64,000 bases of DNA from Planctomycetia bacterium (GTDB taxonomy: Bacteria > Planctomycetota > Planctomycetia > Pirellulales > PALSA-1355): NCBI GenBank assembly GCA_031400775.1, contig JANNQN010000055.1:9056-73055 (forward strand). Direction: 5' to 3'. The position numbers and the translations under genes were made by a program. Shown piece after piece: positions 20,395 to 34,914 of the stretch; the stretch's first letter is position 1, and each line of letters begins with the position of its first letter. Below the pieces are notes generated by a model. The model was not told the origin of the DNA. It saw only the letters and a program-made list of their open reading frames with translations, and did not search any database.

Positions 20395-21447
20395 TCATTG
20401 CATCGAGGTAATGGCGGCCGATATCTCTTCGTATTGCGTTCGCTGGTCTGTGCGACCTGTAAACAAGAGCGGGCCCAAACCTTGACGACTCGCCAACCGC
20501 AGCAACTCCTGTCGCAGCCGCTCGGTTGGCGGCGAGTCGCCATCCACGGCAGTAAATTGTTGTTCTGGCGGCCGCGACTGGCCAGGGGGCGGTGAGTCGA
20601 AGACGATCAATAATTTTGGCAATACGACCCGCTGTCCGGCTTCCTGCCAGGCATGGGTAAACGCCGCTTGCTGGTCTTGGTCCAACTCGAATCGAGCGTA
20701 TGCCAGGCATTGATCCAGGTAAAAATCGCTGACCGCCAATTGCTCTGGCCGGGGCCAGTTGGACCTCGCCAGCAAGCTGGAGAAGCGATCGAGGAATTGT
20801 ATCTGTCGCGCGAAACGGTGACTAGGCGGATCGACCGTGTCCTGGGGCCTTCTATCGGGCGTTTTCGCGGTTGTCGCGACCAATCCATGCACCAGCAGTC
20901 GACCGTCGAAGGCCTGCGCCAGCGACGCGGCTAGCGCGGTCTTGCCGCTGCCGGGCAATCCGAGCAGGGCCACGTACTCGGCCGCCGAATCGAGATGCTC
21001 GAGCAAGCGACCGACCGTCCAGCCGATCGTGGGATGAACCATCTCCGGTGCGACCTCGACGGCGGCTTCCAACACGAAGCGCCGAAAGGCCATCCGCGGA
21101 TGCGGCACGACCAACTGGGGGGTCTCAATCACCTGGTCCTCGTAGAGCAGCAAGTCGAGATCAATCGCGCGGGCTTCCCAGCGCTCGACGCGACGGCGTC
21201 CCAGGTCCAGCTCGATCTGCCGCAGTGCCAAATGCAGTTGCTCGGCGCTGGCCGTGGTTTCCAGCCGCACGGCGGCATTGAGAAACGGCCCCTGGTTGGC
21301 CGGTCCGCCGACGGGGGCCGTCTCGTGCCAGCCGCTGCGGCGGAGCGCGACGGTTTGCTCAAGGGCGCCGAGGCGTTCGATCGCGGCATTGAGCGTTTGC
21401 ACACGATCGCCCAAATTGGCCCCCAGGGCGATGAGCGAGCTGGCCAT
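20395..21447 (-). CDS. folK: 2-amino-4-hydroxy-6-hydroxymethyldihydropteridine diphosphokinase (HPPK) fused to a C-terminal P-loop (deoxynucleoside-kinase-like) domain
   Basis: N-terminus 'SLIALGANLGDR', 'WHETAPVGGP', 'IDLDLLLYEDQ', 'VVPHPRMAFRRFVL'. C-terminal ~190 aa begin with Walker A 'LLGLPGSGKTALA'. Confidence 0.85.
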   Translation of the reverse strand: MASSLIALGANLGDRVQTLNAAIERLGALEQTVALRRSGWHETAPVGGPANQGPFLNAAVRLETTASAEQLHLALRQIELDLGRRRVERWEARAIDLDLLLYEDQVIETPQLVVPHPRMAFRRFVLEAAVEVAPEMVHPTIGWTVGRLLEHLDSAAEYVALLGLPGSGKTALAASLAQAFDGRLLVHGLVATTAKTPDRRPQDTVDPPSHRFARQIQFLDRFSSLLARSNWPRPEQLAVSDFYLDQCLAYARFELDQDQQAAFTHAWQEAGQRVVLPKLLIVFDSPPPGQSRPPEQQFTAVDGDSPPTERLRQELLRLASRQGLGPLLFTGRTDQRTQYEEISAAITSMQ

Positions 21448-21630
21448 GGATCACCGAAAGCCACGGTTGATCTAGAGGGAGCACGCCCGCATCGACGAGC
21501 ACGGGCGCCTAGCCTCGGTACAAGCACGGTCGGCGCCCCAGGCGCCTGCGAACCGCTACAATTTTACCGGGCAATCGATGATGTGAGAAATACGCGGTGC
21601 GAGATTTCAGCCAGGGGTAGGTGCGTATTA

Positions 21631-21706
21631 CCAGAAAAAACCTAGGGGGGGCATCCGAGCCACGACCGGGGCCGTCGACTTTCGATCCGTTCAGTCGCCG
21701 CCCCCC
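21631..21706 (-). terminator. GC-clamped branched hairpin followed by U6 on the minus strand (terminator-like, or the 3' end of an unannotated RNA)
   Basis: GGGGGGGC (21645-21652) pairs with GCCCCCC (20700-series: 21700-21706) around a 47-nt interior holding CGAC/GTCG sub-stems. The minus strand then continues UAGGUUUUUUCUGG (21644-21631). Confidence 0.45.
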
Positions 21707-21960
21707 AAGCTGCATTGATATCGAGCGAACCAGCACACACTACAACCTGGCGAGCTCGCGACGTAGCGCGAATCCGCCCCGCTCACGAAGGAGCGTCGGG
21801 GCAACGATACCAAACTCGTGGCTGCGCAGCGCGAAGGTCTCTCTACTTGCCGGCGATAGGACCGCGATTTATCGCAAACCTTCAGACCACCACAGGTCAG
21901 CCACACACCAAGAACTCGGTGTCAGTCGAATTTCGTTTCGTTGCCTCGGTTGCATCAGAC

Positions 21961-22014
21961 GACATTTTGCGACCGGCGTCGAAAATGTCAAGCAACATTC
22001 TCGCCTATTTTTTT
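21961..22014 (+). other. two mutually exclusive hairpins followed by T7 (attenuator/terminator-like) on the plus strand
   Basis: Hairpin A: GACATTTT(g)CGAC-cggc-GTCG-AAAATGTC (21961-21989). Hairpin B: GAAAATGT-caagca-ACATTCTC (21981-22002, 7/8 bp), then gccta + T7 (22008-22014). A and B share 21981-21989. Confidence 0.4.
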
Positions 22015-22166
22015 GCGTGAAAGAATCCGCTTGCATTTTCCCGTTGGAGTTGTTCCCTTTCGCCGGCTCCCGACCCAGATTGGCCATGACAGCACGCAAG
22101 GCGATGGTCGGCGAGGCGCGATCGTTTCGCCTAGTGGCTCGCGGCGTCGAACCCGGCAAGTTCACT

Positions 22167-23216
22167 TCACGGTCCTGCGGTCTCATCAGAAATGTCGTCG
22201 GGAAGTGCTGTACTGTCGTCGACTGGCATTGTCATGTCGCGTCGAATTTTCACGGACTCGCTGCCTATCGACAAGGTTATTCCGAAATCATCCATTTGCG
22301 CAGTCAAATCCGGCAACCGATCCGGCACTTCGACCAACATGGCCTGGATCGGAGCGCGCACGTATTTTTCAAGAAATAGCGCCATTGTTCGGCCGCCGGC
22401 AGCTTCTAGATGCGCCCAGGCTGCTGATCCCGTATACGCTTCGCCACCCTGTGCCAAGAATGCCGCTTCAAGTTGTTGAAGTTTGGGGTTGGGAGTTGCG
22501 TCCAATACAATCAAGATCGGCGAATACCCGCTATTCTTGCAATCGATCGGAAAGTCCAGTTCTTCTTGCCATCGGCCTTGACCAGACGATGCAATTGTCA
22601 CGCGAATCTTAAACTCGTATGCCCGCTGCTCGCGAATGCAATCCACTTGTCGTCCCTTCAAGGCATCGTTTGCACGACGAATTGGGCTCTTCGTCGCCCC
22701 ATAAGGCACGCCTCCAATAGCGTGTACGATAATCGGCTCGAATAGATAGCCAGTCTCTTGTCCGGCCCGATTGTCGATGTCAAAAAACCACTTCCGCCAA
22801 AACATTAGTCCAGTCAACGCGCGTGCGCTCATCGTTCCATATTGCAGAAGTCCTCGTGGTCCAACTTGCTCAATTGTGGGAATGGGCTGTGTTTGCAGAA
22901 TCCGCTCGTATTTAAGTCGATGCTTGTGAAGGCTTGCTAGGCAAACGAAAAACGTATCGGCGTCGGAATTCAGCTTGAGTAGTTTTTCCAACAGTTCAAG
23001 GAAGTTGACGCCCGGAACTACAAGGGAAGAGAAATTCGCGTCACAAAAGAACGGGGGCAAGCTCTTCGGCAATTTAGGAAACTTTCGGACCAGCCCCAAG
23101 TCGATGGCGATGACCGCGACTAGGTACGAACACGCCTCGTCGGACAAAGTGGTTGCTTGTTCGCCGCCACCGCCTGACCGGGCCTTCTCGATCATCGCAC
23201 GCTGTGCTTGAGTCAA
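22167..23216 (-). CDS. putative restriction endonuclease / PD-(D/E)XK-like partner of the adjacent C5 methyltransferase (family unassigned)
   Basis: 349-aa ORF with protein-like composition in an A/T-richer segment. Its TTG start overlaps the methyltransferase TGA stop (TTGA; alternative ATG at 23195). Candidate catalytic motif 'RQVDCIREQRAYEFKIRV' (D-x9-E-x-K). Confidence 0.5.
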   Translation of the reverse strand: MTQAQRAMIEKARSGGGGEQATTLSDEACSYLVAVIAIDLGLVRKFPKLPKSLPPFFCDANFSSLVVPGVNFLELLEKLLKLNSDADTFFVCLASLHKHRLKYERILQTQPIPTIEQVGPRGLLQYGTMSARALTGLMFWRKWFFDIDNRAGQETGYLFEPIIVHAIGGVPYGATKSPIRRANDALKGRQVDCIREQRAYEFKIRVTIASSGQGRWQEELDFPIDCKNSGYSPILIVLDATPNPKLQQLEAAFLAQGGEAYTGSAAWAHLEAAGGRTMALFLEKYVRAPIQAMLVEVPDRLPDLTAQMDDFGITLSIGSESVKIRRDMTMPVDDSTALPDDISDETAGP

Positions 23217-24505
23217 ACCCGTAATGTCTTCTGAAGCTCAATCTCGGTGGACAGTCCGAATCGGGAACGCACTCTCTCGCTAACGGCTGTAAGGGCCGGG
23301 CTCATTCCGTTTGATAAAGTTGGAACAAAACTGAGCAAAGCTCCCTCAGGCTCAACGTGTAACTCGTCTCGACTGCGCAGATCATTAACGAGGCAGCGTG
23401 CAAAGTGTTCCGCGAGCCTGGGTGGAACAGCATTCCCGATCAACTGTATCTTTTCAGCCTTAGTGCCTGTGAACACGCAATCGTCGTCAAATGTTTGGAG
23501 TCTGGCGCATTCACGAATTGTCAACGGGCGATTTTCAGTCTGGTGGAGGAAATCACGTAATGCGCCGCCTGTAATGGCCTTGGCCGGCTCATTTGAATCC
23601 AATAGCCTGAGCCCAGCAGGTGCTCCACCTCTCTTTTCGGTTGGCGTGCCGTCTTTCACTCGTCTGAACGCTCGCTTGCGATAGCTGTCATGCCAAAGAC
23701 GCTCAGGCAAATCTCGCATCCTTTGACCAGGCTCAAGTAGCTTTGCACGTTCAAGGTCGATGCCTTCCAGCGGACGTGAATCATGGTCGGTCGGCCAGAG
23801 TGATCCAGAACATGGGGAGGGCAATCCAACAAGTGCGTCCGCCACCGATGGCGTGCGCGGCAAATGTGTGCCCGCAAGCCGCGATCCCGGGGCACCAAGT
23901 GCTGAATGTGTTGGCTCCGGAAAGGTTGGATTCCAGCCCAACCCACCAATTGCGATCACTCGCTTCCGGTGTTGAGGAACACCGTAATTCGCAGCATTGA
24001 TTTTTCGCAGGTGAACATGATATCCAGCGGCAATAAGAGGTTCCAGGAGGTCCAGAACAAACTTGCCATTGGCGCCGGTTATGAATCCCTCAACGTTCTC
24101 GAAAACAAACGCCTTTGGGCGCAACCGGGCAACAATCTTCGCGAAGACTGTGACAAGCGAATTTCTCTCGTCGTCGTCATGTCGCCGGCCAGCCGACGAA
24201 AAACCCTGGCATGGAGGTCCACCAGCGACAACCGTCGCCGAGGGAAGGTCAATTTCGGGCAGAATAAATGCGTCAATTACGTGGTTTCTATCAACGTTAT
24301 TCCGATATGTCGCAATAGCCGGGCTCCACGAATCAACTGCACAAACAAGATCAAAACCCGCACGCCTGAAACCGATGGAGAGGCCACCCGCACCACAAAA
24401 TAGGTCAACGAGCGTTGGCTTGAATTGCCCATGCATTCTTAAAAGGCTCCCAGCATTGCGGCATAGGTCCGACAAGCTCCGCAACCGATCCGCCGTTGCG
24501 GGCAT
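23213..24505 (-). CDS. DNA (cytosine-5)-methyltransferase
   Basis: Motif I 'LVDLFCGAGGLSIGF'; IV 'GGPPCQGFS'; VI 'FVFENVEGF'; VIII 'GVPQHRKRVIAIG'; X 'LIGNAVPPRLAE'. A long variable (target-recognition) region lies between VIII and IX. Confidence 0.93.
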   Translation of the reverse strand: MPATADRLRSLSDLCRNAGSLLRMHGQFKPTLVDLFCGAGGLSIGFRRAGFDLVCAVDSWSPAIATYRNNVDRNHVIDAFILPEIDLPSATVVAGGPPCQGFSSAGRRHDDDERNSLVTVFAKIVARLRPKAFVFENVEGFITGANGKFVLDLLEPLIAAGYHVHLRKINAANYGVPQHRKRVIAIGGLGWNPTFPEPTHSALGAPGSRLAGTHLPRTPSVADALVGLPSPCSGSLWPTDHDSRPLEGIDLERAKLLEPGQRMRDLPERLWHDSYRKRAFRRVKDGTPTEKRGGAPAGLRLLDSNEPAKAITGGALRDFLHQTENRPLTIRECARLQTFDDDCVFTGTKAEKIQLIGNAVPPRLAEHFARCLVNDLRSRDELHVEPEGALLSFVPTLSNGMSPALTAVSERVRSRFGLSTEIELQKTLRV

Positions 24506-24824
24506 GATGCGTAAGCTACCATGCCTCCAACATCAGTTGTAGTGGGCAACGTGGAAGGTGACCGCTAACGCCATCGAGGCAACTTGGCACGAATGAATCG
24601 GGAAGTCGGTCGGAGAACGGGACGCTTATGGGCCAATGCCATTGGAACTTCGGGAATGTCGCGTCCGTCGAATCGACGTCATACGGATTTCCAAAAACGA
24701 GTAAGCACGGCGCGAAAGCCAATTCAAACTGGAACACTCGCCACTGCCCTTGTACGCGGTGCGCCGCGTGGAATAGGATGAAGATAGCAGTTCATTCCAC
24801 GATCGAAAGCGGTGGAGCGCGCGT

Positions 24825-28768: not shown

Positions 28769-30196
28769 CTAAATGTCGTAGTACAAGCAGAACTCGTAGG
28801 GATGCGGACGCAGGCGCATCGCATCGACTTCCTTCTCGGTCTTGTACCAGATCCAGGTGTCGATCACGTCAGGCGTGAATACGTCGCCACGCAGCATGAA
28901 TTCGTGATCGCGCCGCAGGGCCGCCAACGCCTCTTCGAGCGAGCCCGGCGTCTTGGGCACCTGAGCCAGTTCCTCGGGCGCAAGATCGTAAATGTCCTTG
29001 TCCAGCGGATCGCCCGGGTGGATCTTGTTCTGAATGCCGTCGATGACCGCCATCAGAATGGCCGCGAACGCCAGGTAGGGATTGCAACTCGGGTCGGGGC
29101 AGCGGAACTCGACCCGTTTGGCCTTGGGGCTGGGGCTGTACATGGGGATCCGGCAACTGGCCGAGCGATTGCGCTGCGAGTAGGCCAGGTTGACCGGCGC
29201 CTCGTAGCCGGGCACCAACCGCTTGTAGCTGTTCGTGGTGGGATTGGAGAACGCCAAAATCGCGGGAGCATGACGCAGCAAACCGCCGATGGCATGCATG
29301 GCCATTTCGCTCAGTCCCGCGTAGCCACTGCCGGCGAACAGGGGGTTGCCCCCCTTCCACAGCGAAACGTGCGTGTGCATTCCCGAGCCATTGTCGCCGA
29401 ACAGCGGTTTGGGCATGAACGTCACGGTTTTTTGATGCCGCGCCGCGACGTTTTTGATGATGTACTTGTAGATCATCATGTTGTCGCCCATGCGAACCAG
29501 GTCGTTGAAGCGCAGGTCGATCTCACTCTGACCGGCCGTGGCCACCTCGTGATGCTGGGCTTCCACGTCCAGACCGCAGTCGATCATCGTCTGCATCATC
29601 TCGTTGCGGATATTCATCATCTGGTCGGCTGGCGGGACCGGGAAATAACCCTCCTTGTAACGCAGCTTGTAGCCCAGGTTGGGATTTTCTTTGCGGCCGC
29701 GGTTCCATTCGCCTTCAATGCTGTCGACGTGGTAGTAGCCTTCGTGGGCGTTCTGATCGAAGCGCACGTCGTCGAAGATGAAAAACTCAGCCTCGGGACC
29801 GATATTGCACGTGTCGGCGATGCCGGTGCTCTTCAGGTAGTTGACCGCTTTGCGGGCCACGTTGCGCGGATCGCGCGAGTAGTCCTCGCGCGTGATCGGA
29901 TCCTGGATATTGCAGATCATCACCAGCGTGGGCAGATCGGTGAAGGGATCGAGAAACGCCGTTTCAGGTTGCGGCACGACGAGCATGTCGCTCTCGTTGA
30001 TCGCCTGCCAGCCGCGAATGCTCGAGCCGTCAAAGCCCAGGCCGTCCTCGAACACGCTCTCTTCGAGCTTGCTGACGGGAATCGTGAAGTGCTGCCAGAG
30101 ACCTGGGAAATCCATGAATCTCAGGTCGACGCTACGAACGTCCTTCTCTCGACAAAGCGCGAGGACTTCTTTGGGAGTCATTTCCTTGGCGGTCAT
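28769..30196 (-). CDS. glnA: glutamine synthetase, type I
   Basis: ATG at 30196 gives 475 aa. '[15 protein letters not shown]', '[15 protein letters not shown]', '[13 protein letters not shown]'. Adenylylation-loop-like '[10 protein letters not shown]'. The 264-codon upstream in-frame extension in the ORF track overlaps the next gene and is rejected. Confidence 0.93.
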
Positions 30197-30305
30197 GGGG
30201 AGCCCCCTGTTGCTCGAAGACTTGTGCGTTTGATCGAAATTACCGAATTGCGCGCCGCGAAAAGCGCACGGCGCGAGGCCGAAATTCGCGGTAACGAGCA
30301 TCATA

Positions 30306-30321
30306 GGCAATCGGCACGCCG
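30306..30321 (-). promoter_or_regulatory. candidate sigma-54 (-24/-12) promoter upstream of glnA
   Basis: The minus strand reads CGGCGTGCCGATTGCC. GG and TTGC are spaced as in the consensus TGGCAC-N5-TTGC. It lies about 110 nt upstream of the glnA ATG and is embedded in the inverted repeat ATCGGC-ac-GCCGAT. Confidence 0.3.
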
Positions 30322-30363
30322 ATGCAACAGGCGCGCTTTCGCCGGCACAGAAGGGGCCGATCG

Positions 30364-31113
30364 CTACTTCGCCACGCCGTTTCGCACGAGCAGATAGGCG
30401 TAGCTGGTCAGCAGCGGCGAGGGATGCCGCACGAGAAAATTGGCCAGCGCCCCGTGCACGCGGCGAACGGCCGGCACGCGGGCGTAATAGTTGTGTCCAA
30501 AGAAACCGCGGTAATCGAGAACCGCGTATCCCAGCCGTTCGAGCCGGCGGATTTGGCCGGCCGTGGGTCCACGGCACCAACTGTAGTAGGCGGCAAACTT
30601 CTTTTCGCGCACCGGATCGCGCGGCGCAAAGGCCCTCAGCAACCGAGCGGTCCAAGCCGGCTTCATCAGCCTGTTGGCGAGAAACGGCGGGCAGTACAAA
30701 GTGGGAAAGAAATGAAACGCCACGCCTCCCGGCTCGAGCATCTTCAGCACGTTGCGATGAAACTGCCCGCCGTCGGGAACGTGCTCCAGCAGCATTCGCG
30801 AGAACACGAAATCGAATCGCGCGGGCATATCCAACCGAGGGTCGCAGACGTCCGCTTGCAGCCTGGCATAGCCGGCCGGCGCCTTGGCCAACTCTTCGGC
30901 CGAGATATCCAACAGCGTGTATTCCAGCCCTCGCGCCGCGATGTCTTCCAACGAAAGTGCCGGGTTCGCTCCGCCCCCCAGTTCGCACACCCGGCGGGGC
31001 TTGAATCGATCGAGCAGGTTAGCGAGCCCCTGCGGATACTCCGACCAGGCCGACTGGGCGTTGCCGTAGGCGATCTGGGCGCTACCGCGGATGATGGGTC
31101 GTGCGAGCGGCAT
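30364..31113 (-). CDS. class I SAM-dependent methyltransferase
   Basis: '[15 protein letters not shown]', '[11 protein letters not shown]', '[16 protein letters not shown]', '[13 protein letters not shown]'. ATG at 31113 avoids overlap with the upstream gene. Confidence 0.75.
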
Positions 31114-32736: not shown

Positions 32737-34914
32737 CTACTTGATAAACAACATTTCACGGTAGGTGGGCAGCGGCCACAGGTCGTCGGCGACAATGCCT
32801 TCGAGCTTGTCGGCTACTTCGCGGACGGCTTTCATCGCGGGGATGACGTCGTGCTGGAAGTGCTTCGCCTCGGCCATCAGATCGCCGCCGCCGTGATGGC
32901 TCGTAACTGCCTCAAGGCCAGCGATGCTCTTCTCCAAGTCGGCGACCAATTGAGTGACCGTTTGCAAGGTCCCGATATGGACGTTTCCGCCCAGGGCCGT
33001 CTTGAGCGAAGCGGCTGTGGCGGCCAATTCACCCTGGTAGCGATAGGCGGCTGGCAAGATCATCGTTTTGGCGATGTTGAGCGCCGCGGCGCTTTCGGTG
33101 TTGATGTCCTTGCAATACCGCTCCATGTAGATGTCGTAGCGGCTGTGTGCCTCGCGTTCGCTGAGCACGCCGTACTTTTCGAATACGGCCAGGTTCTTCT
33201 TGGCAATCAATGCCGGCAAGGCCTCGATCGTGTTTTTCAAGTTCGGCAATCCGCGCTTCGAAGCTTCCTGGTGCCACTCCTCCGTGTAATTGTCACCGTT
33301 GAAGATGATTCCCTTGTGCTCCTTGATGACGTCTTGCACCACCTTTTGCACGGCCGCATTGAGCTTGGCCGGATCGCCGCCCGTGGCCTTTTCCAATTGC
33401 GTGGCGACCTCGTCCAGGCTCTCGGCCACGATCGTGTTGAGCACCACCAGCGGCCCGGCGATGGATTGGCTCGAGCCCACGGCGCGGAACTCGAACTTGT
33501 TCCCCGTGAAGGCAAACGGGCTCGTGCGGTTGCGATCGCCCGCATGCTTGGGCAGGGGTGGTAACGTGTCGACGCCGATCGTCAGGGTACCGGCCCGCTT
33601 CGAATTCGTGGCCCCTCCCTTTTCGATTTGCTCGAAGACGTCGGTCAACTGGTCGCCCAGGAAGATCGAGATGATCGCCGGCGGAGCTTCGTTGGCGCCC
33701 AGACGGTGATCGTTACCGCTGTGGGCGACGGTGACGCGCAACAAGTCGGCGTGCATATGGACCGCGCGGATCACGGCCGCGCAGAACACCAGGAACTGGG
33801 CGTTCTCGTGCGGATTGTCCCCCGGCTCCAGCAAGTTGCCCACCGAGCACCCCATCGACCAGTTGACGTGTTTGCCCGAGCCGTTGATGCCAGCGAAAGG
33901 TTTCTCGTGCAACAGGCACGACATGCCATACTTCTGCGCCACGCGCTGCAAGGTGATCATGATCAATTGCTGATGATCGGTGGCTACGTTCGCATTCTCG
34001 TAGACCGGCGCCAGTTCGTATTGCGCGGGCGCGACTTCGTTGTGACGCGTCTTGACCGGGACGCCCAGTTTGTAGAGCTCGCGCTCGGTCTCGAGCATGC
34101 AAGCCAGGACACGCTCCGGAATCGCGCCGAAGTAATGATCCTCGAACTCCTGGCCCTTGGGCGGCTTGGCGCCGTACAAGGTTCGGCCGCAGGTGATGAG
34201 ATCTGGCCGCGAGAAGAAGAAGTTGCGGTCGATCAGGAAATACTCCTGCTCGGGACCCGCCGTGGCCGTTACCGGGCTGGGGTTCATATGGCCGAACAAC
34301 TTCAAGATTCGCTGCGCCTGCTTGTTGAGGGCCTGCATCGAGCGCAGCACGGGCGTTTTCTTATCCAATGCCTCGCCGGTCCACGAACAGAAGGCCGTGG
34401 GGATGCACAGCGTCGTGCCGTTGGGATTCTCGAGAATGTAGGCCGGGCTGGTCGGGTCCCAGGCCGTGTATCCGCGGGCCTCGAACGTGGCGCGAATGCC
34501 CCCCGAGGGAAAACTGGACGCATCCGGCTCGCCTTGAATCAACTCCTTGCCCGAAAATTCGATCAACGCCCCGCCGTCTTCGCTCGGCGAGAGAAAGCTG
34601 TCGTGTTTTTCGGCGGTCAAACCGGTCAAAGGATAAAACACGTGCGCATAGTGGGTGGCGCCTTTCTCGATGGCCCAATCCTTCATGGCCGAGGCGACCG
34701 CGTCGGCAACGCTGCCATCGAGCTTCTCGCCCTGCTTGATCGTCCGCTGCAGCGCTTTGTAGGCGCTCTTCGGCAGGCGATCCTTCATGACTTTGTCGTT
34801 GAACACATTGCAGGCGAACAGGTTCGCCGAGGGCGTTTCCCGAAAGTTCAGGGCCTGCCCATTCGATTTGTAATTGGTGACTGCCGCGATGGCGTCCTGG
34901 CGTGCACTACTCAA
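32737..34914 (-). CDS. glnN: glutamine synthetase, type III
   Basis: 725 aa. '[21 protein letters not shown]', '[11 protein letters not shown]', '[17 protein letters not shown]'. TTG start preceded by 'AGGAG' 8 nt upstream. Confidence 0.92.

Follow-up and report, generated by a model that had tools for sequence, protein, structure and literature searches.

The cassette and its two genes

Within a 64-kb stretch of the Planctomycetia bacterium contig JANNQN010000055.1, here called the window, two adjacent minus-strand genes span positions 22167-24505 and form a cassette that is, with little doubt, a type II restriction-modification (R-M) pair. A preliminary description of this DNA had located both open reading frames (ORFs) and had read them as a horizontally acquired type II R-M system of unspecified target. 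The positions and strand of both ORFs were confirmed, and the reading itself is supported by the linkage of the two genes, by matches of the second to the restriction endonuclease family RE_ApaLI, by an invariant D...ExK motif and by base composition. The two genes are:

23213..24505, minus strand: C5 cytosine DNA methyltransferase gene, a 430-amino-acid (aa) ORF from the ATG at 24505, matching PF00145 and TIGR00675
22167..23216, minus strand: predicted type II restriction endonuclease gene, distantly ApaLI-like, 349 aa from the TTG at 23216, assigned from homologs, RE_ApaLI matches and an AF2 model

The product of the upstream gene is a C5 cytosine methyltransferase by both score and motif content. 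It matches Pfam DNA_methylase (PF00145) at 204.1 bits (cut-off 22, E=5e-60) over profile positions 3-320 of 324, and TIGR00675 (dcm) at 166 bits (cut-off 100.65, E=1.5e-48), and its best PADLOC model is MTase_II (6.4e-82). All of the canonical motifs listed in the preliminary description were read in the translation, namely FCGAGG (36-41), PPCQGFS with Cys99, FENV, QHRKR and GNAVPP, with the catalytic Cys99 of the PPCQ motif encoded at 24209-24211. M.HaeIII was matched at 2e-34 and these motifs align with it, although the alignment covers only residues 32-187 and 325-372 of the methyltransferase. The variable region does not have the unusual length once ascribed to it, as it measures ~138 aa versus ~112 in M.HaeIII and the Pfam alignment runs as one unbroken stretch. 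The protein likely starts at Met24 (position 24436), giving 407 aa, because this is the length that gene callers gave to the gene on two identical contigs and because the alignments to most orthologs begin near residue 30. The cassette is also present in sequencing runs SRR20217196 and SRR20217205 of the source community. Membership in a DISARM or Druantia module was considered and rejected, as the DrmMII and DruM models both score below MTase_II, the partner genes (helicase, DUF1998, PLD) are absent and the neighbours are housekeeping genes.

A widespread predicted nuclease family with an ApaLI-like core

The second ORF had been judged impossible to place by eye in any named family. It has 2527 homologs at E<=1e-3 in a large protein collection, where the window protein is itself on record as a 342-aa version that begins at an alternative start, the ATG at 23195 (P0001). 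NCBI names a few of the homologs 'restriction endonuclease' and most of them 'hypothetical protein'. A scan of one genome per species found the family in 399 species genomes from about ten phyla, and at the 50% identity level it forms only 362 clusters in a library of 1.84 billion representatives. No model in NCBIfam 20 or PADLOC-DB 2.0 matches the nuclease, and annotation with these two resources would name the methyltransferase only.

The sole recurrent Pfam match is RE_ApaLI (PF09499), which aligns residues ~180-290 of the nuclease with profile positions ~75-187 of 189. The scores of eight homologs (13.7-22.9 bits) stay below the 25-bit cut-off, and two diverged members reach 24.8 bits (P0146) and 27.5 bits (P0153), the latter above it; a match to the newer model, PF09499.18, is recorded for the window nuclease and for 120 of the 120 homologs listed. 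PF09499 counts among the PD-(D/E)XK type II nuclease families and has a patchy distribution driven by horizontal transfer (PMC3424549).

The region that aligns with RE_ApaLI contains the candidate active site:

22608..22643, minus strand: putative catalytic motif D192-x8-E201-x-K203 (VDCIREQRAYEFK), invariant in the alignment, on predicted strands and inside the RE_ApaLI-aligned region

D192, E201 and K203 are invariant in an alignment of 23 sequences with 57-72% identity to the window protein, and the block DIDNRAGQETGY.FEP at 146-161 is likewise invariant. A nuclease triad had been proposed earlier with the spacing D-x9-E-x-K; the three residues stand, and the spacing is corrected to x8. In the AF2 model of the nuclease (pLDDT 81, pTM 0.82), the predicted strand 191-195 carries D192, and the predicted strand 198-203 carries both E201 and K203. 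The modelled order of helices (H) and strands (E), H150-166, E170-172, E184-188, E191-195, E198-203, H215-228 and E232-237, reads as an alpha-beta-beta-beta-alpha-beta core, with the motif placed on predicted strands as in PD-(D/E)XK enzymes.

No relatives of the nuclease were found in the phage collection. The plasmid collection yielded only three distant relatives of the core, on Sulfitobacter plasmids and without an adjacent methyltransferase, which are 30-33% identical to the catalytic part of the nuclease (residues 194-290). One of them, on Sulfitobacter faviae plasmid NZ_CP139727.1 (L163:3500-4402), is a hypothetical protein of ~300 aa near IS66 and RelB-family genes.

Linkage of the two genes and foreign composition

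Conservation of the pair was followed in the related loci, defined as the best 80 of the 399 species, in which the nuclease is 52-69% identical to that of the window. These loci span Planctomycetota, Acidobacteriota, Chloroflexota, Cyanobacteria, Nitrospirales, Gemmatimonadota, Myxococcales, Alpha- and Gammaproteobacteria, Binatia and Opitutaceae, and so wide a spread over phyla at high identity points to horizontal spread of the cassette. Cultured carriers include Oscillochloris sp. ZM17-4 and Cyanobacteria FACHB-471. In 78 of the 80 loci the nuclease gene is preceded on its own strand by a methyltransferase ortholog (54-67% identity by tblastn), and the remaining two begin at contig ends, so that the pair, whose conservation had been suggested as a check, is kept in all 78 loci that have upstream sequence. 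The ortholog is immediately adjacent to the nuclease gene except in one locus, L004. Furthermore, the two genes overlap by 10 nucleotides (nt), with the pattern ATG/GTG GGN YTG A, in 56 of the 80 loci, an arrangement for which translational coupling would be the best explanation.

The cassette also stands out in composition, as its A/T-richness had suggested. Its GC content of 0.534, compared with a window mean of 0.618 (standard deviation 0.020), is the lowest of any 2.3-kb interval in the window, and GC at third codon positions (GC3) is 0.50-0.55 in the cassette genes versus 0.70-0.82 in nine neighbouring genes. The same holds across the related loci, where cassette GC lies below that of the flanks in 87% of cases, with a mean difference of 4.3 points. 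Together, foreign composition and the patchy distribution over phyla argue for horizontal acquisition.

Some copies depart from the two-gene arrangement. In several representatives the methyltransferase (N-terminal) and nuclease (C-terminal) are fused as single polypeptides of 679-806 aa, with proteins P0121, P0138, P0157 and P0164 among those of about 740-806 aa, and uninterrupted frames of 757-776 codons run over both genes in at least three species genomes (L008:4723-7047, L053:4786-7053 and L063:1187-3508). A 1-nt frame change inside the 10-nt overlap is enough to fuse the genes, and the fusions may be natural single-chain enzymes or indels of assembly. The exception to adjacency, in a Planctomycetaceae metagenome-assembled genome (L004:4743-5894), carries an IS4-type DDE transposase (PF01609, PF13808) between a fragmented methyltransferase and an intact nuclease gene and is a decaying copy. 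Split methyltransferase matches were seen in L005, L040, L073 and L082.

Avoidance of GTGCAC around the cassette

ApaLI, of which Alw44I, SnoI and VneI are isoschizomers, cuts G^TGCAC, and GTGCAC was predicted as the target from the RE_ApaLI match before any counting. Against expected counts from a maximal-order Markov model, and with no sequence masked, GTGCAC (52 observed, 157 expected) is depleted more strongly in the 80 related loci than any other palindrome. With the R-M genes masked, which leaves 685 kb of flanks, 50 sites remain where 147.5 are expected, an observed-to-expected ratio (O/E) of 0.34 that ranks first among the 3891 six-mers expected 30 times or more. The R-M genes themselves contain 2 sites versus 23.5 expected. 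Depletion is present in every GC bin and is strongest in the Planctomycetota loci (O/E 0.22, rank 1), compared with 0.42 (rank 4) in other phyla.

This purging is specific to genomes that carry the cassette. In 80 control metagenome loci, fetched via the alanine dehydrogenase of the window and none of them bearing the cassette, GTGCAC was counted 92 times where 114.5 are expected (O/E 0.80, rank 26 of 64 palindromes), and the two sets differ by a binomial test at p=3.4e-7. Loci with no GTGCAC at all number 51 of 80 among the cassette loci, where 20 are expected, and 30 among the controls, exactly the 30 expected. The specificity of the system, which the preliminary description had given as unknown, is no longer fully so, since GTGCAC is selectively purged around the cassettes; these counts and the RE_ApaLI match make it the probable recognition site. 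ApaLI is blocked by 5-methylcytosine (PMC7653180), consistent with a C5 methyltransferase as partner. A literature search for a published methylome tying the nuclease family to a motif found none.

Related and degenerate targets were also considered. GWGCWC and GDGCHC were ruled out by GAGCAC (0.99) and GGGCAC (0.92), and RTGCAY and TGCA by the lack of depletion in their members other than GTGCAC. Enrichment of ATGCAC and CTGCAC was left unused as evidence, since the Markov expectation makes part of it an arithmetic result of the GTGCAC depletion. Among the palindromes of the window, depletion is most significant for CAGCTG, the PvuII site, with 3 sites (20046, 41402 and 51512) versus 20.3 expected; CAGCTG is depleted in the cassette-free controls as well (O/E 0.49), and its avoidance thus looks common to these lineages and not tied to the cassette.

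Contrary evidence and alternative explanations

Several results weigh against an ApaLI-like R-M system with this target. On PF09499.16 the window nuclease scores 16.1 bits (E=0.009), under the gathering cut-off, and for this reason it is termed ApaLI-like here and is not filed as a family member. Only the C-terminal half of the RE_ApaLI model aligns, with profile positions 1 to ~75 left unaligned, and the N-terminal helical region of ~130 residues matches nothing. A Foldseek comparison with the PDB, one of the checks proposed at the outset, found nothing significant with the full model or with the core only (best E 0.11); PD-(D/E)XK-type folds (Avs4, MUS81, XPF/ERCC1 and FAAP24) recur only among the sub-threshold matches, at E 0.1-1.3. 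Nor did a sequence search of the PDB, with the nuclease or its 23-sequence profile, return any solved structure at E<=10. Site avoidance is itself indirect and gives neither the cut position nor the methylated base; these, like cleavage activity, we infer. GTGTAC, the deamination product expected from 5-methylcytosine, is not significantly enriched (GTGTAC/GTACAC, 1.13 vs 0.99). In the window host the depletion of GTGCAC, which had also been put forward as a check, is mild, with 5 sites versus 11.4 expected (p=0.03), a value that fits a recent arrival given the un-ameliorated GC3. No empty-site allele was found, as exact-protein look-ups of both flanking genes gave only two cassette-bearing contigs, and the insertion boundaries are therefore drawn from GC alone. 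Finally, an ACG replaces the ancestral ATG of the nuclease gene in the window, and expression of the nuclease in this host may be reduced.

The alternative that survives best is a true type II R-M system that recognizes another palindrome, related or unrelated to GTGCAC. Specificity is often not preserved under remote homology between restriction enzymes, and here only the catalytic half resembles RE_ApaLI, and does so weakly; the N-terminal region is unrelated to anything known. Other palindromes are depleted in the cassette loci as well (AAGCTT 0.40, CTCGAG 0.41 and CAGCTG 0.46), and in the loci outside Planctomycetota GTGCAC comes only fourth. CAGCTG and CTCGAG, however, are depleted in the controls too (0.49 and 0.60), whereas GTGCAC separates cassette loci from controls, and it was named in advance of the ranking that it then headed. 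AAGCTT lies outside the 14 most depleted control palindromes, and the case-control test was run on GTGCAC, not on AAGCTT. The nearest degenerate relatives are excluded by the undepleted GAGCAC and GGGCAC. A different target is accordingly unlikely, although of the alternatives it deserves the most weight.

A second alternative is that the system is decaying in the window genome, with a nuclease that is poorly translated or not translated and a methyltransferase that is functionally an orphan. It turns on the junction of the two genes:

23213..23222, minus strand: methyltransferase-nuclease junction ACG GGT TTG A, from the window sequence compared with orthologous junctions

Here the stop codon TGA (23215-23213) overlaps the candidate start TTG (23216-23214) by 4 nt, the TTGA overlap noted in the preliminary description. 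The ancestral start codon, at 23222-23220, now reads ACG where the orthologs have ATG GGN YTG A, and the N-terminus MGLTQAQ that follows from it is conserved in the nuclease homologs. With that start lost, the nuclease is left with two possible starts, the TTG and an ATG seven codons further downstream. Decay is known in other copies, both from the insertion and broken methyltransferase of L004 and from the four loci with split matches, and it would accord with the mild depletion of GTGCAC in the window host. Yet the 349-codon frame is intact and keeps every residue that is invariant in the family, and the in-frame TTG over the stop and the ATG further on are both still available. Weak starts are moreover normal in this family, as a junction scan of the 78 other loci gave GTG or TTG in 21 of them as the nuclease start closest to the ancestral position, and recent acquisition explains the mild depletion equally well. 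Decay in the window genome is thus improbable. With frame and invariant residues preserved, and with GTG or TTG starts in about a quarter of the other copies, the window nuclease gene is regarded as functional, possibly at a down-tuned level.

The preliminary description had kept a different methylation-linked effector in reserve, but that the 349-aa protein is a repair, regulatory or methyl-reading factor and not a restriction nuclease is very improbable and found no support, for although it lacks a significant structural match to a solved nuclease and an NCBIfam or PADLOC model, and although the distant Sulfitobacter plasmid relatives have no methyltransferase beside them, its sole recurring family match is to a restriction endonuclease family with one member above the cut-off, its D/E/K residues are invariant in canonical strand positions, one specific palindrome has been purged from host DNA as well as from the cassette, a pattern that marks a cutting enzyme and not a reader, and its length and strict 1:1 linkage are unlike those of a Vsr or controller protein.

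Borders and neighbours of the cassette

The surroundings of the two genes comprise the following features:

21800..24820 (approximate), no strand: low-GC, presumably imported segment, from a 200-bp GC profile
21448..22166, no strand: spacer of 719 bp downstream of the nuclease gene, from the GC profile and an ORF/Pfam scan
24506..24824, no strand: divergent intergenic region of 319 bp between the methyltransferase gene (minus) and a GT2 glycosyltransferase gene (plus), with no family-matching ORF and no RNA family

Besides the cassette, the low-GC segment takes in the whole 319-bp upstream spacer and, past the end of the nuclease gene, another ~370 bp. The longer spacer is composite in its GC: the part at 21448-21800 is host-like and lies upstream of folK, the first gene of a folK-panC-lgt row, and the part at 21800-22166 is the low-GC tail of the cassette. 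The 319-bp region presumably holds the cassette promoter; a sigma-70-like site was searched for there and not found. The two spacers had been estimated at about 720 and 320 bp and free of ORFs, in good agreement with the measured lengths and with the absence from both of any Pfam-matching ORF, tRNA or Rfam match. Neither spacer shows similarity to the flanks of the 80 other cassettes or to the 80 control loci, and no flanking or terminal repeats beyond chance were found around the cassette. The conserved unit therefore consists of the two genes only, with no hidden controller, Vsr or mobility gene.

The Pfam-matching genes within ~10 kb are all housekeeping genes: HPPK, PanC, Lgt-like, GT2, alanine dehydrogenase, Tex, an extracytoplasmic function (ECF) sigma factor and glutamine synthetases. 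HPPK/folK, panC and the lgt-like gene lie on one flank, and the GT2 glycosyltransferase, alanine dehydrogenase and an mtnA-like gene on the other. As stated in the preliminary description, no integrase, transposase, Vsr or controller protein was seen among the nearby genes. The control loci fetched via alanine dehydrogenase have no local synteny in common with the window.

Two features of these neighbours were recorded in passing. The folK product (20395-21447, minus strand) is a 350-aa fusion of an HPPK domain (6-134) with a P-loop region (146-319) that resembles AAA_16 and AAA_28. Two glutamine synthetase (GS) genes lie ~2 kb apart on the minus strand (28769-30988 and 32737-34914); one product has 739 aa with an extension of ~280 residues before the GS domains, and the other, of 725 aa, is type III.

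A proposed mechanism

As a whole, the locus is best explained as a type IIP R-M operon, probably one encoding an ApaLI isoschizomer. In such a system the C5 methyltransferase encoded by the upstream gene would use S-adenosylmethionine (AdoMet) to methylate a short palindrome wherever it occurs in host DNA. The product of the downstream gene would be a Mg2+-dependent PD-(D/E)XK endonuclease, its core distantly related to that of ApaLI and its catalytic residues D192, E201 and K203, which probably acts as a homodimer and would cut the same palindrome when it is unmethylated, for instance in incoming phage or plasmid DNA. The target would most probably be GTGCAC, as for ApaLI. If translation of the two genes is coupled, the nuclease would be made after the methyltransferase and at a lower level, and a new host would be protected before restriction begins. 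The stop/start overlap may in this way keep nuclease output low, in place of a controller protein.

Comparison with known systems and significance

The closest comparison is with the ApaLI system of Acetobacter pasteurianus, whose nuclease, R.ApaLI, is the founding member of RE_ApaLI. The two systems share a C5 methyltransferase as partner. All members of the nuclease family that were tested align, over their catalytic region, with the C-terminal half of the RE_ApaLI model, and what has been purged around the cassette is the site of ApaLI. They differ in that the window nuclease reaches 16 bits against a 25-bit cut-off and begins with ~130 residues that have no detectable relative, a comparison made via the Pfam profile. 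A patchy phyletic distribution driven by transfer is common to PF09499 and the present family (PMC3424549).

With the classical type IIP systems HaeIII and HhaI, which also have C5 methyltransferases, the cassette shares two adjacent co-oriented genes, a separate nuclease of ~350 aa and methyltransferase motifs I, IV (PCQ), VI (ENV), VIII (QxRxR) and X (GNAVP). Unlike these systems, it has the order methyltransferase then nuclease, a conserved 10-nt stop/start overlap and no C protein, and the specificity domain of its methyltransferase is unrelated to theirs. Some relatives resemble type IIC-like single-chain enzymes in fusing C5 methyltransferase and nuclease, whereas the window copy consists of two separate ORFs. 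A more speculative possibility, which we hold only tentatively, is that the nuclease represents a distinct lineage sharing only its catalytic core with ApaLI and joined to an unrelated helical N-terminus, that the cassette is among the more widely exchanged R-M cassettes of environmental phyla, and that some of its members are natural single-chain fusions.

The cassette is an ordinary horizontally acquired one and brings no change to the understanding of R-M biology. Its modest value lies in annotation, where a function and a likely target, GTGCAC, can be proposed for a nuclease family found in ~400 species genomes, and in the possibility that this family is a source of new ApaLI isoschizomers. 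For transformation of Planctomycetes and other bacteria that carry the cassette, it may be necessary to remove GTGCAC from incoming DNA or to methylate that DNA beforehand.

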